NCBI GenBank assembly: GCA_038319685.1
Contig: JBBQDN010000005.1
Span: 15,277 to 79,276, forward strand
Length of the DNA: 64,000 bases
Reading direction: 5' to 3'
From: Candidatus Saccharimonadales bacterium
GTDB lineage: Bacteria; Patescibacteriota; Saccharimonadia; Saccharimonadales; Saccharimonadaceae
The translations under genes were made by a program, and so were the position numbers. A model generated the notes under the pieces. The model saw only the letters and a list, made by a program, of their open reading frames with translations. It was not told the origin of the DNA and searched no databases. Below, piece after piece: positions 27,014-51,204 of this stretch. Every line of letters begins with the position of its first letter. Position 1 is the stretch's first letter.

Positions 27014-28042
27014 CTATCGCAGTGATATTACTACTTCATCGTCATGATGTTCTTGTTTTTGACGAATTCGATGAGCTTCGTGTGCGATTGTCTCTATAGA
27101 GAGATCAGAGTTACTTGCAAGGCTTATTATATCAGGAGAGACGTGATTCTCGCTAGTTTTCGTTTCAGTGATTTGCGCGACGGGTGTGGGGCGTGTAACA
27201 GCAGCCTGTGTTGGTCGTGAGACGGCTGTTTGGGGTTGGCTGGCGATTACAGTAGACTGTGGGACAGTGGCCCCTCCGAGTGGCTGTATGACGGTCTGGC
27301 GGATTGCACTTGGGTATGGGTCGAACACGACGTGAGGGTCACTCGCTGGTTGTGCGACGGGAGTCGGGGGGGTGAGCGCAGTGTAGGGATTTGGAATAAC
27401 AACAGGTTCTGGCTGAGGTGTCATAACAGGTGCTGGTTGAATCGCGGATTGGTGCATTTGATTAATCATGTCCTGGCGACGTTTGACGTCAGCTTGACCG
27501 ATCATATTATTAAATGACTGCGATACCTTGGCGTCGTCATCGAGGACATCTTCGGTTTGTTGAGCGGCGAAAAACATATCAGTCACCATTGAATTGTCTG
27601 GACCTGTTGGCATCGGCACGCCACGAACTGCCCAGCCCCCACTATCAACCACACTTGCCAGGTATGAAAGTCTTTTTTGTGCTTCGTTTTGTGAAATATT
27701 TTTCGTACGTTGAATTTCAACTACCTTTGGCGCGGTAATTTCGACCAATGATTGAATACCATCTGGTTCCCATAACCTTCGACGGGGTTTTAAATAAAAC
27801 GACACAATCGCTGCCAGATAAATTTCCATCGGCTGATCTTTGCGCAGCGGCAGTGCTAGTGCACCAAAAAACAGGATGATCGGTAGCGGGATAACCGCTA
27901 GTGGGATGAATAACTGTGCCAGCCCCCACGCTAGCCCACCAGATATCGCAACAATAATTAAATAAATAAATTGGCGAAAGCTAAACGGCCCGATGAGTTT
28001 GTCATCAGCTTCAACATCTTGAGGTACTTTATAGACCGCCAT
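27014..28042 (-). CDS. PrgI/VirB3-like T4SS membrane protein with long P/Q/T/V-rich C-terminal extension
   Basis: MAVYKVPQDVEADDKLIGPFSFRQFIYLIIVAISGG followed by a second TM matches the PrgI-family N-terminus. Positioned upstream of virB4. Confidence 0.6.
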   Translation of the reverse strand: MAVYKVPQDVEADDKLIGPFSFRQFIYLIIVAISGGLAWGLAQLFIPLAVIPLPIILFFGALALPLRKDQPMEIYLAAIVSFYLKPRRRLWEPDGIQSLVEITAPKVVEIQRTKNISQNEAQKRLSYLASVVDSGGWAVRGVPMPTGPDNSMVTDMFFAAQQTEDVLDDDAKVSQSFNNMIGQADVKRRQDMINQMHQSAIQPAPVMTPQPEPVVIPNPYTALTPPTPVAQPASDPHVVFDPYPSAIRQTVIQPLGGATVPQSTVIASQPQTAVSRPTQAAVTRPTPVAQITETKTSENHVSPDIISLASNSDLSIETIAHEAHRIRQKQEHHDDEVVISLR

Positions 28043-28166: not shown

Positions 28167-31100
28167 TTAGCTGCCGTTATTATTACGATTTTCCATATCA
28201 TGGAGCGCATTTTGCATCGAAGCATCTTCATGAGCAATCTCGATATTTGTTTCACGACCTGTTTCTCGTAGTCTGCCGGCATGGTCGATAGCAGTTTGCT
28301 GTGCGCTATCGACGTCGGATACGTAATTTGCCTCACCCTTTGCTCTTGCACTTATGTCTGCAATTGACTGTAGGGCAGCCTTTTCTTTTGTTCCCATGCC
28401 TGCACTAATTTTTTCATTACCGAGTACAGCAGCAGCAGTTTCACCAGTCAGACCTCCAGAGCTAGCTGCAGACTGGATAGCTGATTCAGTTTGTCCGGCG
28501 ATTTGTTCATGAGATAATCCACTCCACGTACTGGCTTTCGAACTCTCGTCTGTGAGTGAAGTGCCGGGTGCTGTTCGTGACCACGCATCTAGTCCAGCGT
28601 CCTTACCCTTAATACCAGCACTCGATATGTCCTTGCGAAGACTTTGACCAAGTTCAGTATCAGTACCTGGATTTGACGTAGAAAGAGTTTCCCTTAGGGC
28701 GGCAACACCCTTTGCTCCTGTTTGACTAGTGAGGATTCCGGCCGCTGCTCGTGCCCTATTGCCAGCAGCACTTCGTACTTGTTCAGATTGACCAGTATCA
28801 TTAGCTGTCGCTATTGCATTTGATAATTCTGTCTGCAAACCAGCTACTAATTGATGCGGTTCAAACTTTGCTTTAAGAAGGAATTCTTCATTCTCAACCT
28901 TTTCCTTATCAATTTTATTGAGCTGTCCTTGTGCTCGAGCCTGATAACCAACTGCGTTTGCACCGGCGACACTTGCTGCAAATTCAGGATCCTTTACTGC
29001 TTTTTTCAAAATTGCTTCATTCTGAAGGTCTTTCAGCTGATCAGTACGCCCGGATCGTTGAGTATCGATGCGGCCTCTTCTCTTTAGTGCTGCTCCGCGA
29101 CCTGGCATTGACCATTTATTTTCATCCAGAGCACGGATACCGCGTCGCGTTTTTTGGTCATCAGCGAATCCACGTGCACCCTTTTTCATACGATCAAACG
29201 GACCTTTGTTTGGGTTATTAACAAATGCGCCAACCTTGCCAAGTACACCACCGGCGGCCTTCATGATGATTGGCGTGAGCGCAAGCGGGACGATTGCGAC
29301 GAGCGCACCCATAATTTGAATTGCAACAATGTAAGGTGGAGAGGATGCTTGTGAGCTGGCAGTAGATATAATAACCTGTGATGCGAGTGCTGATGCTCCA
29401 AACATTAGTCCGATAATAGGAAACATTAATAGCATTGTTTGGAATAGACCTCGCCATTTTTTGAATAATGATTCAGTATTTGGTAATAGAAACGCGACGA
29501 ATGCCAGTGGCGAGATAACGATTAGCAGAACGATAAGCGCTTGTCTAACTGTAAGTACGACGAAAACCGTCACGATCGCCAGTAACGCAACGATAAGCGC
29601 AGGAAGTAACGCAGACAGTGTAATATAGAGCACTGCAGCACCTGCTATAACTGCCGCGGTAGTAAGGCCTAGCCAACCGCTACCACCCGTAGAGGCCCCA
29701 TTAATCGTCGCTGAATCCGGAACCGTTAGACTGCCTGCGAGACCCTTAAAGACACCATTTACAGAAGTCCCGATAATGTTGGATGCATCAACTGCTATCG
29801 AGCATATCCAAAAAGATATATTAACCAGTATTGCTGCTGCAACTAACCTTGGGAGCATTTTTTTTATACCATAGTTAGTGATTCCAACGCTGGTCACTTG
29901 TGAGAAGATAATAATCAAAAAGACAATCACGAATACGACATTTGAAATATTACGCATAGCTGACCATGCGTTATAAATCCCAGTTGAACCCGTAACGACT
30001 GGTTGTACGGTTAGTAAACTCGCGACAATTCCATAGGCGCCATCAACAATACCCGCCATGAATTTAAGGACAGGACAAACAATCCACCCAATACCGTCAA
30101 TCGCACAAGTAGTTGGGTTATCTTTTGTATTGTCGACGGTTGGGTTTGTAGTAATAATACCGTCTGCCCCACCGGCTGCCTTGGTCGCACCGAATTTACA
30201 TGCAGTGTTCCCGGGTATGTCAGGATCCGAAGATGAACTGACAGGGTATGTAATGTCGCAGTATGCTGGGTCTGACTTATGAACAAAGCCAGCGTCACAG
30301 GCCGCTAAACCGATAGCATCTCGCGGATACTGGTCCTTACAAGTGACTGGCTTATGCGTTGCGTACCAGGCTGCATACGCATCGACATTTGGATCCATCA
30401 TGAGAACCTTGATTTGCGCGCAGGTTGGATTGTTGCCGTCACCATTTTCCAGTCCATAGGTATAGATTTTATCGGTATTAAAAGAGATATCTGCCTTTGG
30501 TTTATAGAGCCAATCTTCCCTGGCGCCCGCATCGGTGATAATAGCTACCGCTATGGCACCTGCTTTTTCGTCGGTCGTGGCTGTTGCGACAGACTTTATC
30601 TTGTCAGCACAATACATTTCAAAGGTTGCCTTACCGATATAATATTCTAAGTAGCCCGGAGGGCCTGGGTTACCCGCACCTCCATAGTACTTTATCTCAA
30701 TAGCACGTTTGACCGAGTCTAGCCTCTTACCCGTATCACTTGAAACTGAAAAATCACCCGATCCACCGTCGCCACATGGACTGCCGTTGGTCCGCTTGAC
30801 ATCTGCATTACTAAAGAGGTCGCAGAATGCCTCGGTTTTTCCACTATATCCAAAAGCAGCAAGTGCGCTACTGATGAATCCTGGCTGATCACAATACGAA
30901 GTACCACCATGCTGCCCTGCATCGCCGTTACGAATAATACCAGTCGACACATAATGATCGACACTAAACCATGATCCATTTGCAACATCACCTGCTGATA
31001 TATTGTACGTGTTTCCGACAGGTCTAAACGGAGCTGTTTTAGCACATGCCGCTAGAGCACGGTAGTAGATGAATGCATTTGCTTGATCATCAATTGAAAC

Positions 31101-31208
31101 ATTATCCACGGGGGCCGCAAGTGCGAGATTCGATAGAGAAATAGTACTAATAACCGTCGAAACGATCATCAAAAGTGCAAGTAGTGAGTACTTTATTTTT
31201 GTCTTCAT
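28167..31208 (-). CDS. giant VirB6/TrbL-like polytopic T4SS channel protein, paralogue 1
   Basis: I chose ATG 31208 (MKTKIKYSLLALLMIVSTVISTISLSNLALA signal; AAGG RBS). It has a ~370-aa Cys-rich ectodomain, the motif CAIDGIGWIVCPV, at least 6 TM helices, and a ~400-aa helical/low-complexity C-tail. Confidence 0.6.
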   Translation of the reverse strand: MKTKIKYSLLALLMIVSTVISTISLSNLALAAPVDNVSIDDQANAFIYYRALAACAKTAPFRPVGNTYNISAGDVANGSWFSVDHYVSTGIIRNGDAGQHGGTSYCDQPGFISSALAAFGYSGKTEAFCDLFSNADVKRTNGSPCGDGGSGDFSVSSDTGKRLDSVKRAIEIKYYGGAGNPGPPGYLEYYIGKATFEMYCADKIKSVATATTDEKAGAIAVAIITDAGAREDWLYKPKADISFNTDKIYTYGLENGDGNNPTCAQIKVLMMDPNVDAYAAWYATHKPVTCKDQYPRDAIGLAACDAGFVHKSDPAYCDITYPVSSSSDPDIPGNTACKFGATKAAGGADGIITTNPTVDNTKDNPTTCAIDGIGWIVCPVLKFMAGIVDGAYGIVASLLTVQPVVTGSTGIYNAWSAMRNISNVVFVIVFLIIIFSQVTSVGITNYGIKKMLPRLVAAAILVNISFWICSIAVDASNIIGTSVNGVFKGLAGSLTVPDSATINGASTGGSGWLGLTTAAVIAGAAVLYITLSALLPALIVALLAIVTVFVVLTVRQALIVLLIVISPLAFVAFLLPNTESLFKKWRGLFQTMLLMFPIIGLMFGASALASQVIISTASSQASSPPYIVAIQIMGALVAIVPLALTPIIMKAAGGVLGKVGAFVNNPNKGPFDRMKKGARGFADDQKTRRGIRALDENKWSMPGRGAALKRRGRIDTQRSGRTDQLKDLQNEAILKKAVKDPEFAASVAGANAVGYQARAQGQLNKIDKEKVENEEFLLKAKFEPHQLVAGLQTELSNAIATANDTGQSEQVRSAAGNRARAAAGILTSQTGAKGVAALRETLSTSNPGTDTELGQSLRKDISSAGIKGKDAGLDAWSRTAPGTSLTDESSKASTWSGLSHEQIAGQTESAIQSAASSGGLTGETAAAVLGNEKISAGMGTKEKAALQSIADISARAKGEANYVSDVDSAQQTAIDHAGRLRETGRETNIEIAHEDASMQNALHDMENRNNNGS

Positions 31209-31247
31209 GTCATAAACCTTATGATTACATTTAACAACACTAGACAT

Positions 31248-32711: not shown

Positions 32712-35318
32712 CTAAATACCAAGTCGGTCACGGATCTCAGGTTTAATGAGACGCAGGGTTTCAGGGCTGGACGTAAGGTTTCCTATGAGTTTCGCATACG
32801 CTACAGGATCTCCAGCTACAGGATCGGTAAGTTTATCAATTGCATGATGCTGCATTGTTGAGTTTGATGCGGCAAACTTATCGGATGCCAAGTTTCTCCA
32901 AGTCGCGATATCTTCATTGATTGTATTAAACGTTACTGTTGGACCCTTGGCGTTGTTAATCCAATCATCGAAGCTCTTTCCGGCCTTACGGATATCGCCA
33001 TTCATACCAAGTACTTCTTTGAAATCGAGTAGATCCTGAGTTGCAGGAGCGCTACTTTCGTAGGTTGTAATAATATCAGCAAGTTTTGCGATACCGGGTG
33101 GGCCATTTTTTGCGATGGTATTTGCATATGCGATGCGCTGAGATAATGTCGTCGACGTATTAAAAGCAGTCTCCAAACGGCCAATGTCCGTCGATAGCGC
33201 GTAGTCCATGGTGTCTTGAATGTTCTTTGTGTCCTCTACGTACGATTGACTAACGGTTGCCTTTGCTCTTGCGAGAACTGAGTTTTGGCCTTGTTCACCC
33301 ATAACTCCACCTGCGAGCACAAGCCGTATAGGATCCGTCTTGAGGGCATCTGCGAGGTCAATTTGTCCAGCACGTTCGGCTTGTTGTTTACGCATTCCTT
33401 GTATTGCAATAGACTGTGCGGTGACATGACTATCACTAACAAGGGTACTCATCGGTGTACCTGCGGCGTACGCAGTGCCACCACGACCACTTTCCCATTC
33501 TTTTGTTTCAGCGTCCCAAGTTGCTTTTGCGTCTTCTGTTTGGCGGGTGGCAAGGTGTTGGGTTAGTCTCTGTGCACGCATACCTGGGTTGGTAATCGCG
33601 TAGCGTTCCTGGTCCGCTTCAACTTGTGCTTCAGACATAGAGACATCTAATTTAGCAATGCGAAGATTCGTTTCATCAGCACGAACTCGGACATTACTGA
33701 GGCGCATATCGTTAAATGCCTTGTCTATAACAGCTTGAGCGGTATCTTTCTTAATACCTGCATGAGTCATACGATGGCTAGCGTCCTGGTAGCCCTTATC
33801 ACCCATACCGTGTGCTTCGGATTCGGCTTCGTAGGCTTTCTTCCATTGTTGTTCGCGCATATGTTTGACGTGTTTGCGCTGGGCACTGGCGCGGAAGGCG
33901 TTACGTTTTGGTGGGGTTGCAAGTGAGCGAGCTTTATGGTGGTCAGCCCGTTCTTTGCTCCAGTTACGGGTACGGTCTAAAATGCCCTTTTTCGGATTGT
34001 TGACCATACCGGCAATACGGCCAAGCAGTGAACCACTCAGTTTAATCAGGAGTGGTGTGATAACAACTGGAGCGATCTGCACCATCATACCCAGGATGAG
34101 AATAACGATTGAATCGGCGTTTTGAATAATCGCCGTTCCTGCCAGCTGCGATCCGCCGAATACGATCGAAAACATCGGGAACATGATCAGGAGGGTCATG
34201 AATGTATCTTTCCATTTATCGAATAATTTTTCAGTATTGGGTAAAAGGAATGCGACGAATGCGAGTGGTGAGAGGATGACAAGAATCGTGATAAGTGCCT
34301 GACGAGCGGCGAGCACGAGGATGGCGACGACTGCTGCGAGCAAGACAATGACCAGTCCTGGAAGGAGTAAGTAGATCGCAGCAGCAAATCCACCACCTGT
34401 TGCAACGATTGCCGAATGAACGGCGATTGCCCCTGCCCCGAGCGCTGTTGCACCACCGAGCACTGCAGCGGTCACGACTTCCCAACCGGTCACGTTCCAG
34501 CTATTCCCAGTGGTTCCGACGATTTGGTTACGAATCGAAATAAAGATATCTTGGATAGAATAGCCAAGGATATTTGACACGTCAACCGCAACCGAACAAA
34601 TCCAGTACGATATATTCACTAAAATAGCCGCGACGATGAGGCGCGGAAGTAGCTTCTTGATACCATAATTGGTCATCATCCCACCAACGAGTTGTGAGTA
34701 AATAATAATGAGGAATGCAATGACAAACGCAACGTTTGCGAAACTTTGCATGACTGACCAAGCACGGTAAAGTGCTGCCTGCTGATTTGTTTGCACCGGT
34801 CGCACTTCGAGGAAACTACTGATGATGCCAAACAGCCAGTCCATTGCTTTGGCGAGGAAATTGGTGACAGGACAGACAATCCAGCCGATACCATCGACCA
34901 CACAGCTTGTCGTGCTGGTTGTGGGACTTGCTGCTGACGGGGTGATATTAACGGTTGATGGTGATGATGGGTTGGTATAGACACCAGGCGGCGTGTAGTC
35001 ATAGGTGACATAGGTTGCGGCGGCTGCTGTCGGCGGATCGGTACCGGGTGCAAAATAAATAACGTAAGCTTTAGACAGAATTGCCGGGGCAATCGGTGCT
35101 GAATCGATAGAAGTATAGTATTTACTACCAGGAGTGATACCAAGGCCATCCGTAGCTGTTGCATCGGTCGGTCCAGTAAAGGTTTTACCGTCGTAACTGA
35201 TTGATTGACCTGTCCACGTAGCGTCGGCAGGAGCAGCATGCGTTGGCTGGACGGTAAAAAGGATACTTGAAAGGATAGCCAAGATGGCGGTCATGGCAAA
35301 AACAAACAACATTCGCAT
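32712..35318 (-). CDS. giant VirB6/TrbL-like polytopic T4SS channel protein, paralogue 2
   Basis: I chose ATG 35318 (MRMLFVFAMTAILAILSSILFTVQPTHA signal; AGGGGT RBS). The track's extra 75 aa run into the divergent promoter region. Contains motif CVVDGIGWIVCPV, at least 6 TM helices and a ~430-aa helical C-tail. Confidence 0.6.
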   Translation of the reverse strand: MRMLFVFAMTAILAILSSILFTVQPTHAAPADATWTGQSISYDGKTFTGPTDATATDGLGITPGSKYYTSIDSAPIAPAILSKAYVIYFAPGTDPPTAAAATYVTYDYTPPGVYTNPSSPSTVNITPSAASPTTSTTSCVVDGIGWIVCPVTNFLAKAMDWLFGIISSFLEVRPVQTNQQAALYRAWSVMQSFANVAFVIAFLIIIYSQLVGGMMTNYGIKKLLPRLIVAAILVNISYWICSVAVDVSNILGYSIQDIFISIRNQIVGTTGNSWNVTGWEVVTAAVLGGATALGAGAIAVHSAIVATGGGFAAAIYLLLPGLVIVLLAAVVAILVLAARQALITILVILSPLAFVAFLLPNTEKLFDKWKDTFMTLLIMFPMFSIVFGGSQLAGTAIIQNADSIVILILGMMVQIAPVVITPLLIKLSGSLLGRIAGMVNNPKKGILDRTRNWSKERADHHKARSLATPPKRNAFRASAQRKHVKHMREQQWKKAYEAESEAHGMGDKGYQDASHRMTHAGIKKDTAQAVIDKAFNDMRLSNVRVRADETNLRIAKLDVSMSEAQVEADQERYAITNPGMRAQRLTQHLATRQTEDAKATWDAETKEWESGRGGTAYAAGTPMSTLVSDSHVTAQSIAIQGMRKQQAERAGQIDLADALKTDPIRLVLAGGVMGEQGQNSVLARAKATVSQSYVEDTKNIQDTMDYALSTDIGRLETAFNTSTTLSQRIAYANTIAKNGPPGIAKLADIITTYESSAPATQDLLDFKEVLGMNGDIRKAGKSFDDWINNAKGPTVTFNTINEDIATWRNLASDKFAASNSTMQHHAIDKLTDPVAGDPVAYAKLIGNLTSSPETLRLIKPEIRDRLGI

Positions 35319-35496
35319 AGAGTTACCCCTATGCGAAACGTACTTTTTCACGTCCCACATACAAATAATAATAGCACTATATGTCATAAAAGTCAATGCC
35401 CCGCGGAGCTTTATACCATATACTATAGTACCAAAAAAACACTCATTGTCGATATTGTTGCCAATCGCGCGTTTTTGTCGTACATTATAGATAGTT

Positions 35497-35904
35497 ATGA
35501 GCCTAAAACAAACAATAAAGATGTCACTACTAGGTACGGTCACCCTGGGTATAATTGGCCTATCGATTGGGACTACTCCGGCATTGGCACAGAGTCAGTG
35601 TGGTAAGGTAAATACTGCGATTATCACCTGTAGTCAACGAGAAACTGGTGACCTCAAAGACAGTGGTGTTTGGGGTATATTGATACTAGTCATTAATATT
35701 ATGACCGCCGGAATTGGTATATTGGCTGTTGGGGCGATTGCCTATGGGGCTATTTTGTATTCAACCGCCGGTGGAAGTGCTGAACAAACGAAAAAAGCAA
35801 TTACTGTTATTACAAATACGGTGATTGGGCTGGTTTGTTTTCTCTTTATGACCGCGATCCTTAATTTCCTGATTCCGGGAGGGATATTTAATGTCATACC
35901 GTAA
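35497..35904 (+). CDS. VirB2/TrbC-like T4SS pilin paralogue P1
   Basis: Signal ...IGTTPALA, a Cys pair (QSQCGKVNTAIITC), then a two-TM hairpin with loop YSTAGGSAEQTKKA. Confidence 0.55.
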   Translation: MSLKQTIKMSLLGTVTLGIIGLSIGTTPALAQSQCGKVNTAIITCSQRETGDLKDSGVWGILILVINIMTAGIGILAVGAIAYGAILYSTAGGSAEQTKKAITVITNTVIGLVCFLFMTAILNFLIPGGIFNVIP

Positions 35905-36595
35905 CGTCACCGTAAAATCACGAATTAAGAACTGGGTACTTGCCATATTTTTTGTTGCATCAACCGGGGGTGCACTGGTGACAACTGCCCTGCCTCAAAC
36001 GGCAAGCGCTGCATGTGCGACAAGTTTTTTCGGGATTCCCGCTTGGTATGACGGAATGATCGGTGGTGATTGTAGGGTGCTTGACCCGTCAAGTTTCCCC
36101 GGAGGTTTGTCGGGATTTATTTGGAGGATTGTCCTGAATGTTGTCGAGATTATTTTACTGGTGTCTGGCTATGTTGCTGCCGCGTTTATAATTGTTGGTG
36201 GGTTTAAATATATTACCAGTGCTGGATCGCCGGATGATTCAGTAAAAGCCAGAAAAACAATCATTAATGCAGTGATTGGGTTGGTGCTTTCGATGTCGTC
36301 GGTGGCGATTGTCAATGTCGTCACAACAACTGTTGTGGGTGGAGTAGATGCGACGGGCATTCCGACAATCAGTGCGGACGGCGTAACACTTGCTGCTATC
36401 CTTAACGCAGTGTATTTCTGGGCGGGTGCAATTGCCGTGCTGATGATCGCTATTGGCGGACTACTGTATGTTGTATCGGGGGGTACTGCGAGCAATATCA
36501 CCAAAGCAAAAGATACAATTATTTATGCATCGGTCGGGCTTATCATTATTATTATGGCGTTTACGATAACACAAGTCGTCATAGGAAGGTTTTAA
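35891..36595 (+). CDS. tandem double-domain VirB2/TrbC-like pilin P2
   Basis: Signal ...LPQTASA, a Cys pair, then two consecutive hairpin modules: GGFKYITSAGSPDDSVKARKTIINAVIG and GGLLYVVSGGTASNITKAKDTIIYASVG. Confidence 0.55.
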   Translation: MSYRNVTVKSRIKNWVLAIFFVASTGGALVTTALPQTASAACATSFFGIPAWYDGMIGGDCRVLDPSSFPGGLSGFIWRIVLNVVEIILLVSGYVAAAFIIVGGFKYITSAGSPDDSVKARKTIINAVIGLVLSMSSVAIVNVVTTTVVGGVDATGIPTISADGVTLAAILNAVYFWAGAIAVLMIAIGGLLYVVSGGTASNITKAKDTIIYASVGLIIIIMAFTITQVVIGRF

Positions 36596-36596
36596 T

Positions 36597-36965
36597 ATGA
36601 AAAAAATGAAACAATATGTCATGATGTTTGCGCTGGCCACGTGCCTGGCGGTTAGTGCTATTGCACCTGTTTACGCAGTAAACGTATTCCCTGCCTGTTC
36701 GGTTGATCCTGGGTCTGAGGTTTGTAAGGCGGCTGGAACCGACAGAGCCGACAGTACGATAAAAACCGTGATTAATACAGTCATTTATATTATCGGTATT
36801 GCGGCGGTCATCATGATTGTTATCGGTGGCCTGCGCTATGTTTTGTCGGGTGGTGATTCATCGGGAACTAAAGGTGCGAAGGATACGATCTTGTACGCAG
36901 TTATTGGTCTGGTGATCGCTATTCTGTCGTTTTCGATTGTTAACTTTGTCGTTGGGAGATTTTAA
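36597..36965 (+). CDS. VirB2/TrbC-like T4SS pilin paralogue P3
   Basis: Signal ...IAPVYA, Cys pair ACSVDPGSEVC, and hairpin IGGLRYVLSGGDSSGTKGAKDTILYAVIG. GGAAGG RBS. Confidence 0.6.
   Translation: MKKMKQYVMMFALATCLAVSAIAPVYAVNVFPACSVDPGSEVCKAAGTDRADSTIKTVINTVIYIIGIAAVIMIVIGGLRYVLSGGDSSGTKGAKDTILYAVIGLVIAILSFSIVNFVVGRF
36799..36857 (+). repeat. 59-nt tract identical to 37196-37254 (pilin P3 vs P4)
   Basis: By eye, ttgcggcggtcatcatgattgttatcggtggcctgcgctatgttttgtcgggtggtgat is identical in both genes. A 3-nt indel follows, then high identity continues. Confidence 0.85.
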
Positions 36966-36966
36966 T

Positions 36967-37365
36967 ATGAAAGTAATAAAAAGGAAGTATATGAAAAAAC
37001 TACAGATGATTATTGTGAGCTTCGTTGCATTATTTGCGATTGGTGCGGGAAGTTTAGTACTTAGTCCACAAACGAGCTATGCAACTCCGGCGGATGAAAT
37101 CAAAAAAGGCGTGACGAATGTTGGTGGCGGCACCAGTGGAACGCTTGACGCGGGTATCAAAAATGCCATCAACGTGATCCTGTATGTCACCGGTGTTGCG
37201 GCGGTCATCATGATTGTTATCGGTGGCCTGCGCTATGTTTTGTCGGGTGGTGATAGTTCATCGACCAAAGGTGCGAAGGATACAATTCTGTATGCTGTAG
37301 TGGGACTTATCGTGGCGATTATCGCGTATGCGATTGTTAACTTTGTCGTCGGTGCGTTTAGCTAG
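36967..37365 (+). CDS. VirB2/TrbC-like T4SS pilin paralogue P4
   Basis: Start is ATG 36967 or 36991 (both have an RBS). Signal ...PQTSYA, no Cys pair, hairpin IGGLRYVLSGGDSSSTKGAKDTILYAVVG. Confidence 0.6.
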   Translation: MKVIKRKYMKKLQMIIVSFVALFAIGAGSLVLSPQTSYATPADEIKKGVTNVGGGTSGTLDAGIKNAINVILYVTGVAAVIMIVIGGLRYVLSGGDSSSTKGAKDTILYAVVGLIVAIIAYAIVNFVVGAFS

Positions 37366-37409
37366 CCCCGTAAACTAACATATTCAGGAAAGCATAAGCC
37401 AAATGGCTA

Positions 37410-37438
37410 TTAACAAATAGCGCCCAATCTGCTATAAA
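37410..37438 (+). promoter_or_regulatory. sigma70-like promoter for pilin P5
   Basis: TTAACA (37410-37415), 17-nt spacer, TATAAA (37433-37438). An AAGAAAGGAA RBS precedes ATG 37473. Confidence 0.35.
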
Positions 37439-37472
37439 CTAAAGAGAGTAAATCCTAAGAAAGGAATTAAAA

Positions 37473-37880
37473 ATGAAACGAACATTAAAGAAAATAGCTC
37501 AGAGCCTCCTTCTGGTTCCAGTTGTTGCACTTGGTGTAAGCCTGGCGCTTCCAGCCGTTGCCCCAACAAACGCGAACGCCGCATTCAATGGCGGTATCAG
37601 CAACGGTGCAGCTGACAGTAAAGGTACTGGCCAACAAGATAATCTTGATGGTACGGATGGTGTGTTTAAAACCGTCACAAACGTGATGCTGTACATCATT
37701 GGTGCGATTTCTGTCATCATGTTGATCATCGGTGGTATCCGCTATGTGGTATCAGGTGGTGAAAGCAGTGCAGTTACCGGTGCAAAAAACACCATTCTGT
37801 ATGCGGTTATCGGTATTATCGTTGCGATCATTGCGTACGCACTGGTCAACTTCGTTATTACAAGTTTCTCAGCACCATAG
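37473..37880 (+). CDS. VirB2/TrbC-like T4SS pilin paralogue P5
   Basis: Signal ...PTNANA and hairpin IGGIRYVVSGGESSAVTGAKNTILYAVIG. Confidence 0.6.
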   Translation: MKRTLKKIAQSLLLVPVVALGVSLALPAVAPTNANAAFNGGISNGAADSKGTGQQDNLDGTDGVFKTVTNVMLYIIGAISVIMLIIGGIRYVVSGGESSAVTGAKNTILYAVIGIIVAIIAYALVNFVITSFSAP

Positions 37881-37901
37881 TTTAGCAGACGCTCGTTTGT
37901 A

Positions 37902-37936
37902 TACTCCCCTCTTACTACAGAGGGGAGTATTTATTT
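37902..37936 (+). terminator. rho-independent terminator of the pilin operon
   Basis: TACTCCCCTCT-tacta-cAGAGGGGAGTA followed by TTTATTT. Confidence 0.75.
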
Positions 37937-38017: not shown

Positions 38018-38491
38018 CTACTGAATTGTAATTTTCTTGGCTTGTTCCTGTTTGACTTTACTAAAGCTGATGGTGAGGACGCCGTCTTTTAGGACTGCTT
38101 CGACTTCATCTTCTTTGACAGCAACAGGAAGTGCGAGTGTACGGCTAAATTCGCCCCAATAACATTCCTGAATGTGCCAGTTGGTTGCATCAGTGTCGTC
38201 ACCACTACTAAGAGTCCCGCTGATTGTCAAAATACCATCACTGATACTGACATCAAGTTCTTCTTTGTTCACACCTGCGGTGCGGGCTTTGACGACTAAT
38301 CGTTCGTCTGTTTCATAGACATCAACTGCGAGTTGACCCGGGAAATCATCTTCTGATTCTTCCCATGTGCCATTATCAGCTGCTGGTGCGGCTGTAACGT
38401 GTTCTTGCTGTACGGTTAGATCATCATCGTTTAGAAACGCGGCTGCGAGTTCATCTTCGATCAAGAGATCATCATTCTGTTTACGGGCCAT
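38018..38491 (-). CDS. Hsp20/alpha-crystallin small heat-shock protein
   Basis: Alpha-crystallin-domain pattern (AVDVYETDERLVVKARTAGV..LTISG...FSRTLALPV..V.A.LKDGVLTI). ATG 38491 is preceded by GGAGGA; the track start at 38503 is a GTG inside the RBS. Confidence 0.85.
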   Translation of the reverse strand: MARKQNDDLLIEDELAAAFLNDDDLTVQQEHVTAAPAADNGTWEESEDDFPGQLAVDVYETDERLVVKARTAGVNKEELDVSISDGILTISGTLSSGDDTDATNWHIQECYWGEFSRTLALPVAVKEDEVEAVLKDGVLTISFSKVKQEQAKKITIQ

Positions 38492-38597
38492 GATATCCTC
38501 CACTTTCTCTAGGCTCTATTGACAAGTAGTCTCTTACAGTATAACGGAGCTATGCGGTATAATCAATGCAACAGGGTATGTAAACGTAAAAAACACA

Positions 38598-39263
38598 ATG
38601 ATAGATAGACTACTTGGCATCATCGCTCCGCACTACTGTTCTGGATGTGGTAAAACAGGTACCTTATTATGCGATAATTGTAAATATGACATCATTCAGG
38701 AACCACTTGAAACCTGTATCGTGTGTCAGTGCCTAACAGGTACGGACAATCTTTGTCGGCGCTGCAAAGTCCCCTATCAAAAAGCTTGGTGTGTCGGCGA
38801 ACGGTCGGATAGTCTGCAGCGGCTTATTGGGGTGTATAAATTTCGCCGGGCCAAGGCTGGATACTGTGATATTGCCGAACTACTCCTTAGTCGACTGCCG
38901 GAATTACCTCCATCGACAATTATTGTGCCGATTCCGACGGTCGGTAGCCATATACGAGAGCGAGGCTATGACCATATGGCCCTGATTGCACGATATATTG
39001 CCAAAAAACGAGGCCTTGTGACGCAAAACGTCCTCGTACGCAAAACAAATACCAAACAACGGGATGCGAGCTTTAGGGTACGTCAGCAACAAGCTAAGCA
39101 GGCATTTGGATGTCGTGGTCTGTTAGAACCGGATGTTCCGTATGTATTGATTGATGACGTCGTGACGACAGGTGCGACACTATACTACAGTGCGCAGGCG
39201 CTGCGCGATGGCGGCGCAAATATAATATGGGTGGCTGCTGTGGCCAGACAGCCTCTCGACTAA
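38598..39263 (+). CDS. comFC: ComF-family protein (ComFC-type phosphoribosyltransferase)
   Basis: N-terminal Zn-finger CSGCG...CDNC...C..C....C..C and PRT motif VLIDDVVTTGATL. Confidence 0.85.
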   Translation: MIDRLLGIIAPHYCSGCGKTGTLLCDNCKYDIIQEPLETCIVCQCLTGTDNLCRRCKVPYQKAWCVGERSDSLQRLIGVYKFRRAKAGYCDIAELLLSRLPELPPSTIIVPIPTVGSHIRERGYDHMALIARYIAKKRGLVTQNVLVRKTNTKQRDASFRVRQQQAKQAFGCRGLLEPDVPYVLIDDVVTTGATLYYSAQALRDGGANIIWVAAVARQPLD

Positions 39264-39308: not shown

Positions 39309-39398
39309 GGAGAGGTGCCCGAGTGGTTTAAGGGAACGGTCTTGAAAACCGTCGTGCCAGCAATGGTACCGAGAGTTCGAATCTCTCCCTCTCCGCCA
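39309..39398 (+). tRNA. tRNA-Ser (anticodon TGA)
   Basis: Manual cloverleaf: acceptor GGAGAGG, anticodon stem ACGGT/ACCGT, loop CTTGAAA, long variable arm, GTTCGAATC T-loop, encoded CCA. Confidence 0.85.
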
Positions 39399-39401
39399 TA
39401 T

Positions 39402-39429
39402 AAAATAACGACCATTCGGTCGTTATTTT
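39402..39429. terminator. bidirectional hairpin terminator
   Basis: AAAATAACGACC-attc-GGTCGTTATTTT. Sits between the tRNA-Ser and the convergent 460-aa gene. Confidence 0.7.
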
Positions 39430-39438
39430 ATATGGCGC

Positions 39439-40851: not shown

Positions 40852-41259
40852 CTACACGTTCGTTCCGCCGCTCACACCAGTTGGTGAAAAGCTACCAATC
40901 ACAAAGTTGATCATTGCGTACGCAAATAGCGCCACCATCACGCCGATGATCGCATATAAAATCGTATTTTTGGCGGCGGTGATGGCGGTCGAATTACCAC
41001 CGGATACCACGTAGCGTAGTCCTCCGACGATAATCATAATAACTGACACCGCACCAATGGCATATAGCATGACGTTACTGATTGTTGTGAAAACACCAGC
41101 TGCACCGAACAAATCGACGACCTGCCCTGTGCCCTGTGCAGCCAGAGCGCCATCGGCGACAGACCCGCCGAACGCGCTTGCCATGGGTGCAATCAGGATA
41201 CTTAGGATAACCATAGTCACGCCAGAAATAGTGGCGAAGATAGTTTTGACTGATTTCAT
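40852..41259 (-). CDS. VirB2/TrbC-like T4SS pilin paralogue P6 (distal copy)
   Basis: I chose ATG 41259 (AAAGGAA RBS): MKSVKTIFATISGVTMVILSILIAPMASA signal and hairpin VGGLRYVVSGGNSTAITAAKNTILYAIIG. Closest to P5. Confidence 0.6.
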   Translation of the reverse strand: MKSVKTIFATISGVTMVILSILIAPMASAFGGSVADGALAAQGTGQVVDLFGAAGVFTTISNVMLYAIGAVSVIMIIVGGLRYVVSGGNSTAITAAKNTILYAIIGVMVALFAYAMINFVIGSFSPTGVSGGTNV

Positions 41260-41296: not shown

Positions 41297-41324
41297 ATTA
41301 TAGCAAAAGACGTGAAATAGTCTA
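41297..41324 (-). promoter_or_regulatory. promoter of distal pilin P6
   Basis: On the minus strand: TAGACT, 16-nt spacer, TGCTATAAT (perfect -10 at 41302-41297 with upstream TG). Confidence 0.4.
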
Positions 41325-41672: not shown

Positions 41673-42344
41673 CTATTTTAGTTCTTCTCGAAGCTTTGTT
41701 AAATCAAAGACGGTGAATAAATGATCCGTTTGACCAATGAGTTCTTCATTGAATAGTTGCTCTAGCGCTCTACTTGCGGTTTCTCTGTTCATATTTATCG
41801 AGTCTGCAATATCCTGATGTGTGATGGGGGCGTTAATAATAACTTTATTGTTATGTGAAGTGCCGAATCTTTCAGCAATAGAAAGAAGCTCGGCTATGAC
41901 TCTCCCTCGCGCAGACCTAAATTCAAGTATTTGTATACGTTGTGTGTAAACTGCTATGACATTTACTGTTTGGTTTAGGATTTCTTGGGTTAACCACATG
42001 TTTGTCCCCATTGCGATACGTAACTTATCTTTGGATGTTTTTATGACGGTCACATCATTCATTGCTTCGTAGAAAAGACCGGTAATGTGATTGCCATCTA
42101 GCGCCCACGGGAGGGGTATTAGCTCTCCTTCTTCATGGATCAGTAAAAGATTCGCATGACCATCAGCCGAAGTTGAATGTGATTTGACGAAGCCCTTTTT
42201 GATAAGATACACACCGTCTGGTTCATCATAGCCATTAACGATGGTTTCACCACCGACAAATTCTTCCGTCGTGCCATCACTGAAATACGAGAGTATACTC
42301 TTATCTTTTCTGGTCGTTGAACGAAAACGGTTGTGGTCTATCAT
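41673..42344 (-). CDS. Crp/Fnr-family transcriptional regulator
   Basis: N-terminal cNMP-binding beta-roll (GVYLIKKGFVK...GE) and C-terminal HTH ITHQDIADSINMNRETASRALEQL. Confidence 0.8.
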   Translation of the reverse strand: MIDHNRFRSTTRKDKSILSYFSDGTTEEFVGGETIVNGYDEPDGVYLIKKGFVKSHSTSADGHANLLLIHEEGELIPLPWALDGNHITGLFYEAMNDVTVIKTSKDKLRIAMGTNMWLTQEILNQTVNVIAVYTQRIQILEFRSARGRVIAELLSIAERFGTSHNNKVIINAPITHQDIADSINMNRETASRALEQLFNEELIGQTDHLFTVFDLTKLREELK

Positions 42345-42652: not shown

Positions 42653-43420
42653 ATGATTAAACCTGACATTATTGAAAAACTTGGACTATTTAATAACTCT
42701 GAGCTAAATATATTCTCGGTATATCTGGGTAGTGATTCGATCAAGGCACCAAGTAGCGGGTTTTTGCGTACCCAGTTTCACTCATTATTGCACCGTGACA
42801 TGGACTCGGTATCTCGACACACATACGCCCATGACATACATAATATAACTCGGTATCTCGATGGATATATTCCGTCAGCGAGAACTATCGCTTTATTTTC
42901 TTCTGGCGATCGACTATGGGAACAAGCGAGCCTGGAATACTCGCTTCCAATAGGTATAACCCTAGGTAATTCGCCCTACCTAAAACCGATACTTGGCTCT
43001 TTGGATCATTACTCAAAGTACATAGTACTGCTTGTTGATAGAGAAAAGCTTCGGATATTTACTGTCGATCAGGGTGAGATGGTAGATCATTCTGAGGTTT
43101 TGGATGATTCAGTCCCCCAGGTGTCTAAATCAACAGGGATGGAGTTTGCTGTTGGAAAGAGCGACGTTAATCAAAGGCATAACGACCTCCTTTTGCAGCG
43201 CCACATTGATTTACTGGCTAAATCAATCGTAAGATTTAATAATAAAGAACGAGTTAAATTTGTCATTATAGGGGGACATTCAGAACTATTCAAAAAAGTA
43301 TACGCATCACTACCTCCGGGTATCCGATCAAAGGTTGCGGGTACATTTGTGACAGAAGTCAATATTCCGCTTAGTGATATCATGAAGAAATCTAAACTAG
43401 TTGCGGCACAGGTTAGTTAA
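42653..43420 (+). CDS. hypothetical protein, possibly bacterial eRF1-like (baeRF) family
   Basis: N-terminal ...LNIFSVYLGSD and central YIVLLVDREKLRIFTV resemble patterns I associate with baeRF/eRF1-like families. Unverified. Confidence 0.3.
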   Translation: MIKPDIIEKLGLFNNSELNIFSVYLGSDSIKAPSSGFLRTQFHSLLHRDMDSVSRHTYAHDIHNITRYLDGYIPSARTIALFSSGDRLWEQASLEYSLPIGITLGNSPYLKPILGSLDHYSKYIVLLVDREKLRIFTVDQGEMVDHSEVLDDSVPQVSKSTGMEFAVGKSDVNQRHNDLLLQRHIDLLAKSIVRFNNKERVKFVIIGGHSELFKKVYASLPPGIRSKVAGTFVTEVNIPLSDIMKKSKLVAAQVS

Positions 43421-43535: not shown

Positions 43536-44090
43536 ATGAATAAGCTTAGTCATAAATTGAAACAACTAATCGTCACCGTCGCGTGCTTGATGTTCGTTCT
43601 TATTCCCACAACCGTCGCTGCTTCGCCGTTTGGCCAAGGAGTCTTTGGTGCTGATGTGCCATTTGGGTCGGTCACAAGCCTGGCGATTAACCTTGGGGGG
43701 AACGTATCACTTAGTTTAAGCCCGAGTGGGCCAAACCTTAGCGGAACAGGGTCGCATGTTATTACGGTGACATCGACCGATGTTGTGGGCTACCAACTAT
43801 TTGTTCGCAGTAACGGGAATAGTAATATGGTTAATGGCAGTGCAACCATCCCGGCAAGTGGCAATAGCACGGGGGCAGCGCTCAGTCTCAATACTTGGGG
43901 GTTTAATACCGATGGAACCAGTAACTTTATCGGTATGACAACGACACCACGGCTTATCAAAGACACGACCGGACCGGCAAAGACGGGCGACACCACGACT
44001 GTTACCTACGGGGCACTTACCGACGCAGTGCAATCTGCGGGCCAGTATACTACGACTGTGATTTATACTGCTATCGCAGAGAATCAGTAG
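43536..44090 (+). CDS. secreted beta-rich protein, WxL- or SCPU-like
   Basis: Signal ...PTTVAASP, internal VVGYQLFVRS, and C-terminal AGQYTTTVIYTAIA strand, like the terminal G-x-Y...hydrophobic strand of WxL/SCPU proteins. Confidence 0.35.
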   Translation: MNKLSHKLKQLIVTVACLMFVLIPTTVAASPFGQGVFGADVPFGSVTSLAINLGGNVSLSLSPSGPNLSGTGSHVITVTSTDVVGYQLFVRSNGNSNMVNGSATIPASGNSTGAALSLNTWGFNTDGTSNFIGMTTTPRLIKDTTGPAKTGDTTTVTYGALTDAVQSAGQYTTTVIYTAIAENQ

Positions 44091-44970
44091 TCGTCGGTTT
44101 TTTAGGCTGATGCCTAATACGTCGACGCCAACGAGCGAACATGACGATACCCCATCCTGCAACAATTACCACTGCATAAAACCATAACGGTGTGTATACG
44201 ACAATTCCCTCGACAACGACGGGTTGTGATATATCAGTTGTATAGCCGTAGGTCACTTTGTATATACCAGGAAACAGTGGAGCTTGTACTGACTCATCGA
44301 CATGTCGCACGACGCCAGGCAAAAGGATATGACTAACAGACACGGTGCTTTTATTGGTCCACGGGCCACCTATCGATGCGTGTACGGTCGCAGTGTAGTG
44401 AACGTTACCAGTGTTTGCGATATCGAGTGAGAATGGGATACGGTCACCGACAACAAAGGTGGTGATAGTATGTGACCGCAGTGTATTTGTTTGCGTTGTG
44501 TTGCCTCGTATAGTCATATATAGAGGTGCGGCTACTTGGATCCGGCTACTGACACCTTTTTGTTTGACCGTCGCACCGGCGATGATAGTGTAGTATTTCC
44601 CTCCTGGTGCTGTACGCGCAGGCGGCGTCACACTATAGGTGACACGTTCGTTTTTCCCCGGTTCGAGTAGAACGACGGTTTTACTAAAATGCAACCAGTT
44701 GTCTGTGACGTCACTAAACGTGTAGTTGTAGGAATAGTCCGAAACCGAGAATTCCTCGACAGATAGCGTGACGGTGAGCGGCGACTGGGTATAGTTTGCG
44801 ACCATTACTTCCCCCAGTGCTGTTTTACCGGCGTCAACATCCAGAAAATTGCGCGGGGGCGAAATGAATAGCCCCCTGTTTGTCGTTGATTGGGCGTTTG
44901 CAGTAGTCGGACAAAGGCCGACCGACACAATCATGATAATGATCGCGGCCACAAATAGTATGCGTTTCAA
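44071..44970 (-). CDS. DUF916/DUF3324-like Ig-fold cell-surface protein with C-terminal TM anchor
   Basis: Signal ...TTANA, FISPPRNFLDVDAGKTALGEVMVANYTQSPLTVTL, C-terminal TM WFYAVVIVAGWGIVMFA plus an RRRIRH tail. Confidence 0.4.
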   Translation of the reverse strand: MKRILFVAAIIIMIVSVGLCPTTANAQSTTNRGLFISPPRNFLDVDAGKTALGEVMVANYTQSPLTVTLSVEEFSVSDYSYNYTFSDVTDNWLHFSKTVVLLEPGKNERVTYSVTPPARTAPGGKYYTIIAGATVKQKGVSSRIQVAAPLYMTIRGNTTQTNTLRSHTITTFVVGDRIPFSLDIANTGNVHYTATVHASIGGPWTNKSTVSVSHILLPGVVRHVDESVQAPLFPGIYKVTYGYTTDISQPVVVEGIVVYTPLWFYAVVIVAGWGIVMFARWRRRIRHQPKKPTTTDSLR

Positions 44971-44982
44971 CGGATGTACCCC

Positions 44983-45582
44983 CTAGCTGCGCTTGATGAG
45001 TTGGACTTGGATATCGGTCACGACATTATTGTAATGTTTGATAGCAAAGGCCTGAGATTCTTGGTTACGGGTCTGCCATTCGGGTGCAATAACATAGCCA
45101 TAGCCGAAATCAAAATCACACGTCACAGGATAGTGATCAAGCTTGTTGTCGATGCGCCACTGTTTATTGACGTACAAAAAACTAGCTTCTGAAATGGCTC
45201 GCTGGTGGGTTGGATCTTGCCAGGCGCGCATACTGGAATAATACGGACAGACAATTCGCGCAAAACCCTTGAGTGGGATGTTTGGGTTAGCCGGGTCAAA
45301 TTCGGCTGGTTTTAAAATACGGTAGATTTCGTCAAAAAACTGATAGAATGGATCATTAAAACTATCACCATGAGGAATATGTTCGACAAAGTTCGAACAT
45401 TCGATTTCGTCGACAGAATTATCGGCAAATTGCGTCCACGGGAACGTCAAAAGGTCTTGAACGTAATCGACGCCCTTGGTTTTTATAAGATCAACGCCTT
45501 TAAATCCTTCGGGTTTGTGTTCGCCAGACCCAAGCGATAATTTTAGGGGTTCAGTATTTTTTGTCGTTTTTTTCGTAGCCAT
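44983..45582 (-). CDS. class I SAM-dependent methyltransferase
   Basis: LSLGSGEHKPEGFKGVDL (motif I-like), FADNSVDEIECSNFVEHIP, YRILKPA. Confidence 0.5.
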   Translation of the reverse strand: MATKKTTKNTEPLKLSLGSGEHKPEGFKGVDLIKTKGVDYVQDLLTFPWTQFADNSVDEIECSNFVEHIPHGDSFNDPFYQFFDEIYRILKPAEFDPANPNIPLKGFARIVCPYYSSMRAWQDPTHQRAISEASFLYVNKQWRIDNKLDHYPVTCDFDFGYGYVIAPEWQTRNQESQAFAIKHYNNVVTDIQVQLIKRS

Positions 45583-45592
45583 AAGTTCTCCT

Positions 45593-46318
45593 TTACCACA
45601 TCATCTGATTAACTGCATCGAAATGTCCAACCCGTACGCGGCTATCACACGCAAATTTATAGCCAAGTTCACGGGCGTGTTGGAAAAACCATAAATCCTG
45701 CGTAAATACCTGGACACCGCCGCCAGGAACGACTTCTTGTTTGGTTTTGAACCAATGTCCGTATTCAAATCGTTTGTCTTTGAGCATTTCAATCCGGAAT
45801 AGAGTAAATCCCATGCCAAGACCGTTACACGGGGTGATGGCTTCGGGGGCTGGTATGCGAGGAATAAAATTAAGTGGCATGGTATTTGGGTCACCGTAGC
45901 ACATTGGCTGTCCGGCGTCACCCTTGGTCCAGTACAGGCCACCAACGGCATCGTAATCGTCGATTGATTCGTATAGTTTGACCAGGCCGTCAGGTGGCGG
46001 TGCATTGTCTTCTTCGAGGGTGAGAATGAATTTGAATGAACTCAGTTCGGGGTTTTCAAGGATCATTTTGATAACCTGGTTATAGGCTTCGCCGACTTCC
46101 ATGCCCTCCATAAACAGCGGACCGAGGACTTTTTGGTTCATTGGACGAATCATTCCCTGCCAACTTTGGACAATACGAGCAGGAATCATGCCCCTAGTTG
46201 GGCAGACGATGATTGTCGATAGGTCACGATACGTCTTTTCTTTTTCCAGGCGCGTTGAATAGTCACTCGAGTTATGAATGCCGGCGTTGTCGGGTACGAG
46301 AATTTGTGGTTTTACCAT
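45593..46318 (-). CDS. GT-A fold glycosyltransferase (GT2-like)
   Basis: IIVCPTRG, LEEDN (DxD-like), TQDLWFFQHARELGYKF..D..V.VGH. Confidence 0.45.
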   Translation of the reverse strand: MVKPQILVPDNAGIHNSSDYSTRLEKEKTYRDLSTIIVCPTRGMIPARIVQSWQGMIRPMNQKVLGPLFMEGMEVGEAYNQVIKMILENPELSSFKFILTLEEDNAPPPDGLVKLYESIDDYDAVGGLYWTKGDAGQPMCYGDPNTMPLNFIPRIPAPEAITPCNGLGMGFTLFRIEMLKDKRFEYGHWFKTKQEVVPGGGVQVFTQDLWFFQHARELGYKFACDSRVRVGHFDAVNQMMW

Positions 46319-46365
46319 ATCTAGGATTTAGTATATCACGCCTTGAGCCAGCTGGTGCGGTATGT

Positions 46366-47055
46366 TTATGCGTCGACCCATGCAGTTGTAGCAGTGGGCG
46401 AAAATGGGCCGATGAACGACGCCGAACCGCCAGTAAAGCCAATATCATCAAAACAAAAATTACTAATAACACTGTTGGTGGTGAGTTTACCAAATTCCGC
46501 GCTGGTCGCATTTGTCGTCCCAAGGTCAAGAGTAGAGGTAGTAAAGGTACTTTCAACAGGGCTTGCCGAATCTCCTACATAGTAGGCAAAAGAGGCTGAT
46601 CCTGTTGTCGAGGTGTCGACAGTAATGCCAAGTTCGATGCGGTACCAGACGCCAGAACTTAGGGGATTAGTAAAGGTAAATATACCAACCCCTGAGGTGT
46701 CTGTCAACTGGAGCCTATACGTGCCAGAGGTATTAATGCATGTACAGGTTGTGGTACTGTTTCGTATGGTTGCGATGCGAGCTGCAGCCGATGGTGTACC
46801 AAGCATACAGAAATAAAATCGAATGGCAGCGTTAATATCGTTTTCACCATTGAACCTCATGGCCATTGTACCACCCGTAGTGTCCGAGCTAGCATTGTAG
46901 GACTGAGACCCATGCATTACCGACAGGCCGCTATATTTAATTGACCCTGTTCCTGAAACGGCAACAACATTAAACGCATCACCCGACCCAGTCTGGTTAA
47001 TAGCCAAATTGGCTCCGACCGTTCCACCCTCTGCGTTGTTATTATGGTATGCCAT
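46366..47055 (-). CDS. signal-less beta-rich protein, LamG/concanavalin-like jelly-roll candidate
   Basis: No signal peptide. Pattern ...GVWYRIELGITVDTSTTGSASFAYYVGD resembles LamG-type lectin folds. Confidence 0.3.
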   Translation of the reverse strand: MAYHNNNAEGGTVGANLAINQTGSGDAFNVVAVSGTGSIKYSGLSVMHGSQSYNASSDTTGGTMAMRFNGENDINAAIRFYFCMLGTPSAAARIATIRNSTTTCTCINTSGTYRLQLTDTSGVGIFTFTNPLSSGVWYRIELGITVDTSTTGSASFAYYVGDSASPVESTFTTSTLDLGTTNATSAEFGKLTTNSVISNFCFDDIGFTGGSASFIGPFSPTATTAWVDA

Positions 47056-47081
47056 ACGTTACTATTTAGTATACACGGGCA

Positions 47082-48485: not shown

Positions 48486-48495
48486 TACAAAATCC

Positions 48496-51198: not shown

Positions 51199-51204
51199 AC
51201 TACT

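Follow-up and report, generated by a model that had tools for sequence, protein, structure and literature searches.

The 64,000-nucleotide stretch of Candidatus Saccharimonadales contig JBBQDN010000005.1 (assembly GCA_038319685.1) analysed here, referred to as the window, carries six paralogous genes for small membrane proteins, five in tandem (P1 to P5) and one distal on the opposite strand (P6). These genes almost certainly encode the VirB2-like pilin set of a chromosomal, origin-proximal, monoderm-type (MPF-FATA-derived) type IV secretion system (T4SS) of the Saccharimonadales. Judged by gene order and sequence, the locus is gene-for-gene orthologous to SEML1_0014-0019 plus SEML1_0024 of Candidatus Southlakia epibionticum, whose T4SS genes, the pilin set included, were described by Wang et al., Cell 2023 (PMC10633639). 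Taken together, the data are probably best explained by a pilin set made up of distinct, non-interchangeable subunit classes.

The six open reading frames (ORFs) are found in the ORF list where the initial annotation had placed them, P1-P5 in tandem on the plus strand and P6 on the minus strand (Table 1). P4 starts at the ATG at 36967, the upstream TTG at 36937 being unlikely. A custom hidden Markov model (HMM) was built from the hairpin columns of 43 domains from six genomes, among them the seven of the window, and was run over all six-frame stop-to-stop ORFs of at least 50 aa in the window. It found exactly seven hairpin domains, of which P2 carries two and each of the other five ORFs one (E 1e-25 to 3e-32), and none outside P1-P6, in agreement with the seven pilin domains first proposed. 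The seven share a C-terminal helix-loop-helix with seven invariant residues. The suggested loop consensus, GG(L/I)RY..SGG.S....AK(D/N)TI(L/I)YA, describes P3-P6 and, loosely, P2b, while P1 and P2a diverge from it. Every protein has an N-terminal K/R-rich hydrophobic segment with an AxA-like end, read from the sequence and not by a predictor, and Cys pairs are present in the heads of P1, P2 and P3 and absent from P4-P6, the latter as originally described. Overall identity between the window paralogues is 25-30%, and the heads are strongly different. The two domains of P2 occupy residues 82-153 and 171-240 of the stop-to-stop ORF (PF18895/HMM); its P2a part consists of a signal peptide, a CxnC head with the motif FFGIPAWYDG and hairpin 1, and is joined to the P2b hairpin by a linker of ∼16 aa.

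PF18895 (T4SS_pilin) is the sole Pfam family above threshold for the window pilins. P2 scores 61.1, P3 40.7, P5 36.7, P4 36.2 and P6 28.7 bits, against a gathering threshold of 26.6. P1 scores 17.1 bits, under this threshold, and is recovered by the custom HMM (E 8e-25, in a model that includes the window's own P1), by which it clearly belongs to the same family as P2-P6. The TrbC/VirB2 family PF04956 gives a sub-threshold match to P3 (23.7 bits, E 5.6e-5; gathering threshold 27.9). All 16 relatives tested match PF18895, and in 8 of the 16 PF04956 is the second match at E<=0.01. The best NCBIfam model for all six proteins is NF045849 (Mbov_0395 pilin-like), which spans the whole 80-residue hairpin; all six stay under its cutoff of 40 bits, with a best score of 36.9. 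Unrelated membrane-protein families (DctQ, DUF456, DUF898 and others) all scored far under the Pfam threshold, so the hit to some other small-membrane-protein family that the initial annotation had named as refuting did not turn up, and the earlier identification as T4SS pilins is upheld by these family matches and by the surrounding T4SS genes. Type IV pilus pilins were considered and rejected: no class III G|F(T/S)L(I/L)E motif occurs in the six sequences, all of which have AxA-type signal peptides and two C-terminal helices.

The architecture is of the VirB2/TrbC type, a signal peptide followed by two hydrophobic helices with a short polar/basic loop, both in the alignment and in the AlphaFold2 model of P5. 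The P5 model consists of a signal-peptide helix, a low-confidence head and hairpin helices at 64-93 and 98-133 with pLDDT >90. In the model of P2, four long helices lie past the signal peptide (pLDDT 68.8). The pilins are encoded together with homologues of VirB3, VirB4 and VirB6.

Five related loci (L001-L003, L005 and L006) were compared, giving six genomes with the window. The closest relatives are uncultured Candidatus Saccharimonadales/Saccharibacteria, and the nearest genome found is a Candidatus Saccharimonadales metagenome-assembled genome with 65-89% amino acid identity. The gene order, from a divergent VirB6-like gene and P1-P5 through Hsp20, a ComF-like gene, tRNA-Ser and a 460-aa membrane protein to P6, recurs in L001, L003, L005 and L006, with the P6 class at the same distal position in all four. 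In a neighbour-joining (NJ) tree of a hairpin-containing alignment, pilins cluster with those at the same place in the array and not with the others of their own genome. P1, P2a, P2b and P6 each form a single clade over those of the six genomes in which they occur, and P6 is the sister class of P5, with which it has the head motif G.GQ...L.G..G(V/I)F, or more fully G(T/S).Q...L(F/D)G..G(V/I)F, in common. Other classes carry signatures of their own, a C-terminal NFLIPGG(V/I)F in P1 and a head C...FFGIPAWYDG...C in P2a. The N-terminal region that had been called variable is so between paralogues; among orthologues the heads are conserved. In 39 P5 sequences, nine head positions show conservation of 90% or more, and W52, P66 and the Cys pair of the P2a heads are kept across 18 sequences. 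There are 3,829 P5 homologues, of which the best 120 are 63-89% identical over the full length.

P1 is the only class with large head-size variation between genomes, its members ranging from 135 to 442 aa. P1-class heads expand in two of the relatives, with 230 aa in L005 (9312-10004) and three copies in L006 (7755-9998) of 129, 157 and 442 aa (Cys-rich). The L005 and L006 copies all keep the PGGVF C-terminus.

P2a and P2b form one ORF in the window, L002, L003 and L005, and are separate ORFs in L001, L006 and Southlakia (SEML1_0015/0016); when separately encoded, P2b is without a canonical signal peptide. The fused proteins fall into 18 clusters with 38-72% identity. By Fitch parsimony the fused state appears at about 8 separate positions in a P2a tree of 120 clusters, a short and poorly resolved tree that implies a history of repeated fusion or fission. 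The fusion is topologically legal, because hairpin 1 ends, and hairpin 2 begins, on the outside. That fusion of exactly these two classes is recurrent and tolerated would be most simply explained if P2a and P2b were direct neighbours, in a 1:1 ratio, in the functional structure. A 59-nt tract, running from helix 1 to the loop, is identical in P3 and P4. Elsewhere the longest exact runs are at most 16 nt between P3 and P4 in three relatives and at most 14 nt between other pilin pairs of the window, and the tract is probably the result of a recent, short gene conversion.

P2 overlaps the P1 stop by 14 nt, and at the P2/P3 and P3/P4 junctions the start lies 1 nt past the stop (TAAtATG). From these junctions P1-P4 are read as translationally coupled. 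P5 follows a 107-nt spacer and has its own Shine-Dalgarno sequence, AAAGGAAT, which is the same in P6. Separate promoters had been proposed for both genes. P6 has a good candidate, with 10 of 12 consensus positions; for P5 only a weaker site, TTAACA-17-TATAAA, was found by eye, in addition to its own Shine-Dalgarno sequence and the strong terminator-like hairpin that closes the P1-P5 unit. Putative promoter-like sites occur on both strands of the divergent control region upstream of P1 (35396-35368, minus strand, 10/12; 35458-35486, plus strand, 9/12). The -10-like TACATT of the latter (35481-35486) stops only ∼10 nt short of the ATG of P1, and a Shine-Dalgarno sequence cannot be made out, which suggests, if the site is real, that the P1 transcript is leaderless or has a very short leader.

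In the mechanism we propose, Sec/YidC would insert each protein into the membrane and the signal peptide would be removed, so that a hairpin of two membrane helices remains, its small head outside the cell and its short basic loop (R...K) in the cytoplasm. The VirB4/VirB3/VirB6 platform would extract these hairpins and pile them up as a tube resembling a pilus, or as a short conduit, running through the wall to the host bacterium. The seven domains would represent distinct subunit classes that diverged long ago and have fixed roles. P5 is likely to be the bulk (candidate major) subunit, since it is the most conserved class and appears to be separately expressed, and P6 would be its dispensable sister. 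P2a and P2b would form an obligate neighbouring pair and would for that reason be fusable. P1, whose head expands in relatives, is a candidate distal or host-contact subunit.

The positional orthology, the P2 fusion and the conversion tract together favour non-redundant subunits over antigenic or host-range switching. In Southlakia, transposon sequencing (Tn-seq) scored all six tandem pilins as essential (GD/ES/ES) and the distal SEML1_0024 as non-essential (NE; PMC10633639 Table S1), a pattern that agrees with non-redundant subunits. The mixed filament suggested in the initial annotation fits the evidence; on whether the classes really assemble heteromerically we consider the chances even. 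A more specific model is tentative: a heteropolymeric pilus or conduit of at least six non-redundant VirB2-like classes, in which P2a and P2b are obligate adjacent protomers, their adjacency being read from the recurrent natural fusions in Rosetta-stone fashion, and P1 makes the host contact, filling the role of the missing VirB5. In the conjugative pili whose structures are solved, a single pilin forms a homopolymer together with lipid, and we know of no such heteropolymeric assembly in any T4SS.

Several points weigh against a pilus built from fixed subunit classes. The NJ trees were made from alignments of about 75-135 columns, and P3, P4 and P5, which are separate in closer genomes, merge in the most distant ones. 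In the Nei-Gojobori comparison with L002, L003 and L005, dS was saturated (>1 or undefined) in nearly every region, so that selection tests are weak and no test for positive selection is possible with these relatives. The promoter scan returned 17 sites, barely above the 13.0 +/- 3.3 of shuffled sequences. The essentiality of the upstream genes in Southlakia possibly reflects polarity on P5, the operon being tightly coupled, and the Tn-seq data comprise 11-16 insertion sites per gene. No filament of these pilins has been observed in any Patescibacterium, and it is referred to only as an 'intriguing possibility' (PMC12857230). Foldseek comparison of the P5 model with the Protein Data Bank (PDB) gave only generic hairpins (chemoreceptors, ATP synthase c, pore-forming toxins) at E>1, and is uninformative because the fold is too simple to discriminate. 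Profile searches of PDB sequences with two pilin alignments found no T4SS pilin, the only matches being transmembrane segments of MacB and PsbX (E 0.05-0.5), which were treated as chance. Six annotated MPF-T VirB2/TrbC proteins were collected via a VirB2 probe that matches annotated virB2 at 99%; hhalign against them gave a probability of 8% (E 0.004, 34 columns) for one pilin alignment and 1.7% for the other. As measured by these profiles, homology to canonical VirB2 is weak.

The pilins could instead stay in the membrane as channel or assembly-platform hairpins of the T4SS, in the form of a stalk or a lipid-handling ring, without an extracellular pilus. We consider this unlikely but a serious rival, because no filament has been seen and the link to pilus-forming VirB2 in the hhalign, PDB profile and Foldseek comparisons is weak. 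Small membrane proteins in Gram-positive and Mycoplasma conjugation systems are likened to such a membrane-only role. The mature proteins are mostly two transmembrane helices with heads of 20-60 aa, their nearest NCBIfam model is that of the Mycoplasma pilin-like protein, and monoderm MPF-FATA systems are not known as pilus builders (PMC12102498). However, the signal peptides together with the Cys pairs in the heads point to extracellular parts that are exposed and stabilised by disulfides, the P1-class heads in relatives, at up to ∼350 aa, suggest surface display, seven classes are many for an inner-membrane ring, and TrbC/VirB2 matches recur. None of these observations is decisive.

Quite unlikely, in our view, is that the paralogues are interchangeable, with different ones used by turns or freely mixed, and vary surface antigens or receptor specificity for different host strains. 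A proposal of interchangeable variants exists for the Bartonella Trw and Anaplasma VirB2 paralogues. The heads do differ strongly between the window paralogues and evolve fast, head dN being 2-5 times hairpin dN, but they are conserved among orthologues and omega is <1 wherever it can be defined. Of the comparison of heads and hairpins called for in the initial annotation, the faster head dN thus came out, and the comparison with L002, L003 and L005 gave no evidence of diversifying selection, a weak test given the saturated dS. Array size varies from 6 to 10 genes between genomes and P1-class proteins vary greatly in length; nevertheless, the array positions are occupied by conserved orthologues and not by lineage-specific shuffles. 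The conversion tract shows recombination between copies. Separate promoters are possible for P5 and P6, whereas the translational coupling of P1-P4 would have these four co-expressed, not switched. Host adaptation was raised by Quinonero-Coronel et al. (PMC12102498), and some array members are differentially expressed in RNA sequencing of TM7x, but every one of the six tandem genes was scored essential in a single host pairing of Southlakia, which is unexpected of spare variants. Antigenic or receptor variation, also put forward in the initial annotation, is thus disfavoured overall, each array position being a conserved orthologue across genomes; for the P1 heads it may still apply.

Soluble, Sec-secreted effectors delivered to the host are highly implausible and were rejected: all six proteins have signal peptides, and the TM7x equivalents, three of which rise in stable symbiosis, originally went under the names 'Sec secreted array' or 'six putative effector genes', but ∼70 of roughly 100 mature residues (about 70%) form two long hydrophobic helices, the sole family above threshold is T4SS_pilin, and the same TM7x genes have been reclassified as VirB2 arrays (PMC12102498).

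Table 1. Coordinates of the pilin genes, associated signals and neighbouring genes in the window.
Feature	Coordinates	Strand	Remarks
dnaA	12971-14329	+	dnaA/dnaN span 12971-15705
Wall hydrolase, 791 aa, and 1030-aa protein	18293-20668 and 21153-24245	-	T4SS operon; 791-aa protein, GH3 + phage-tail lysozyme + C39-like fusion; 1030-aa protein, weak NlpC/P60 match
VirB4 ATPase	24258-26153	-	P-loop_TraG, AAA_10
TraC-like, 275 aa	26153-26980	-	TraC-like assignment from orthologue
PrgI/VirB3-like	27014-28042	-	PrgI
VirB6/TrbL-like polytopic paralogue	28167-31247	-	1026 aa
VirB6/TrbL-like polytopic protein	32712-35318	-	868 aa from likely ATG; divergent from pilin array
Divergent control region, VirB6-like gene to P1	35319-35496		promoter-like sites on both strands, putative
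P1 pilin	35497-35904	+	135 aa; signal peptide, Cys-pair head, hairpin
P2 di-pilin	35891-36595	+	234 aa; P2a domain + P2b hairpin
P3 pilin	36597-36965	+	122 aa; Cys-pair head
Identical tract P3/P4	36799-36857 (P3) = 37196-37254 (P4)	+	59 nt; helix 1 to loop
P4 pilin	36967-37365	+	132 aa from ATG; no Cys
P5 pilin	37473-37880	+	135 aa; after 107-nt spacer
Terminator-like hairpin	37901-37930	+	12-bp stem + T-run; closes P1-P5 unit
Hsp20/alpha-crystallin	38018-38503	-
ComF-like gene	38598-39263
tRNA-Ser(tga)	39309-39398
Membrane protein, ∼460 aa	39439-40821
P6 distal pilin	40852-41259	-	135 aa from ATG
P6 promoter-like site	41297-41324	-	TAGACT-16-TATAAT, extended TG (TGcTATAAT); 10/12, consensus match only

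The T4SS block lies on the minus strand from 16.7 to 35.3 kb and is of monoderm type; dnaA/dnaN are ∼2 kb from its end, a position that matches the published origin-proximal pattern of Patescibacteria T4SSs. A mobile island was rejected, as the synteny is conserved and the locus is chromosomal and adjoins dnaA. No relaxase or coupling protein was recognised within the window, nor was a VirB5 tip protein or a cyclase/peptidase partner. The 791-aa and 1030-aa proteins are candidate wall hydrolases of the VirB1 type, with the host wall a possible target besides the cell's own.

The two VirB6-like proteins are 45% identical over a 354-aa transmembrane core (E 2e-95), and neither has a Pfam match even at E 5. 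In precomputed tables, PF19590 (TrbL_3) is carried by the L002 orthologue (890 aa) of the 1026-aa paralogue and by four large L006 proteins, while no TrbL_3 is on record for the direct orthologue of the 868-aa gene. L006 has four large, polytopic VirB6-like genes in a row. A scan of a genome collection with the VirB6-like protein returned only one relative, at 41% identity. VirB6-like genes are duplicated in Rickettsiales T4SSs, and VirB6 duplication alongside pilin duplication is seen in parallel in the window.

The Hsp20 gene lies between the tandem and distal pilins in every locus that reaches that far (L001, L003, L005, L006), and its Southlakia orthologue SEML1_0020 was scored essential (PMC10633639). 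The protein may serve as a putative holdase for the very hydrophobic pilins. A perfect 20-bp-stem hairpin (39394-39437) directly after tRNA-Ser(tga), before the convergent gene for the 460-aa membrane protein, is probably a bidirectional terminator. Beyond P6 and a tRNA-Ser(gct) lie genes for a Crp/Fnr-type regulator and a baeRF family 10 (release-factor-like) protein, at 41673-42344 (minus strand) and 42653-43420 (plus strand). These are followed on the minus strand (44071-57147) by a long run of ORFs of 199-900 aa with virtually no Pfam matches save one weak Fn3-like match, which may encode Patescibacteria-specific surface proteins.

The window locus is a clean new example of a published system and not a discovery. 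Since it is orthologous to the published Southlakia system, it is not novel as a kind, and the novelty implied by the initial annotation was not borne out: arrays of six VirB2-like genes are already known from the literature as a hallmark of Saccharibacteria T4SSs (PMC10633639, PMC12102498, PMC12857230). What is new are modest comparative points, namely the positional orthology, the recurrent P2a-P2b fusion, the conversion tract and the expandable P1 heads, none of which was found in the survey of Patescibacteria arrays (PMC12102498). They turn the question of why there are so many pilins into structural predictions on stoichiometry, on P2a-P2b adjacency and on P1 at the host interface, for which Southlakia and TM7x are genetically tractable systems. 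To our knowledge, the Patescibacteria T4SS is the only one shown to be essential for the growth of its owner.

The window pilins resemble canonical VirB2/TrbC (Agrobacterium VirB2, RP4 TrbC; PF04956) in size, long signal peptide, two helices and basic loop, in their location with VirB3, VirB4 and VirB6, and in the sub-threshold PF04956 matches. They differ in that canonical systems have a single gene, adjoining VirB1/VirB3, and belong to diderms, and the profile-profile similarity is not significant. A tblastn search with P3 of 72,556 plasmids returned a single weak, unannotated Priestia match (E 0.04), and therefore no close plasmid pilins. Mbov_0395 (NF045849) of a Mycoplasma integrative and conjugative element (ICE) likewise belongs to a wall-less/monoderm, MPF-FATA-type system, but there the gene is single-copy and the ICEs carry a relaxase, and the window proteins score under its cutoff. 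Bartonella Trw (trwL) and Anaplasma (virB2) likewise combine several VirB2 paralogues, dependence on a host and a T4SS that is not conjugative. Those systems are diderm MPF-T, with copies thought to be variant surface subunits, whereas the window copies represent deep, position-conserved classes.

Closer counterparts are found within the Patescibacteria. Quinonero-Coronel et al., Microb Genom 2025, reported 441 VirB2 arrays of 2-11 genes in 383 Patescibacteria assemblies, most commonly in Saccharimonadia, with a mean member identity of 25% and with the T4SS often near dnaA (PMC12102498). The window fits these arrays in all respects, with PF18895/PF04956 genes of low identity near virB4 in a relaxase-less T4SS by dnaA. 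The survey differs from the present analysis in favouring host adaptation. The nearest match is Southlakia, in which six tandem PF18895 genes (0014-0019) are followed by Hsp20 (0020), a ComF-like gene (0021), tRNA-Ser (0022), a 463-aa membrane protein (0023) and a distal minus-strand pilin (0024) (PMC10633639). The sequences have diverged, functional data exist on the Southlakia side only, the window organism being uncultured, and the fusion of P2a and P2b leaves the window with five tandem genes as compared to six. From the divergent VirB6-like gene through to the distal opposite-strand pilin, the window otherwise has the same order and strands as SEML1_0014-0024, similar gene sizes and the same location near the origin.

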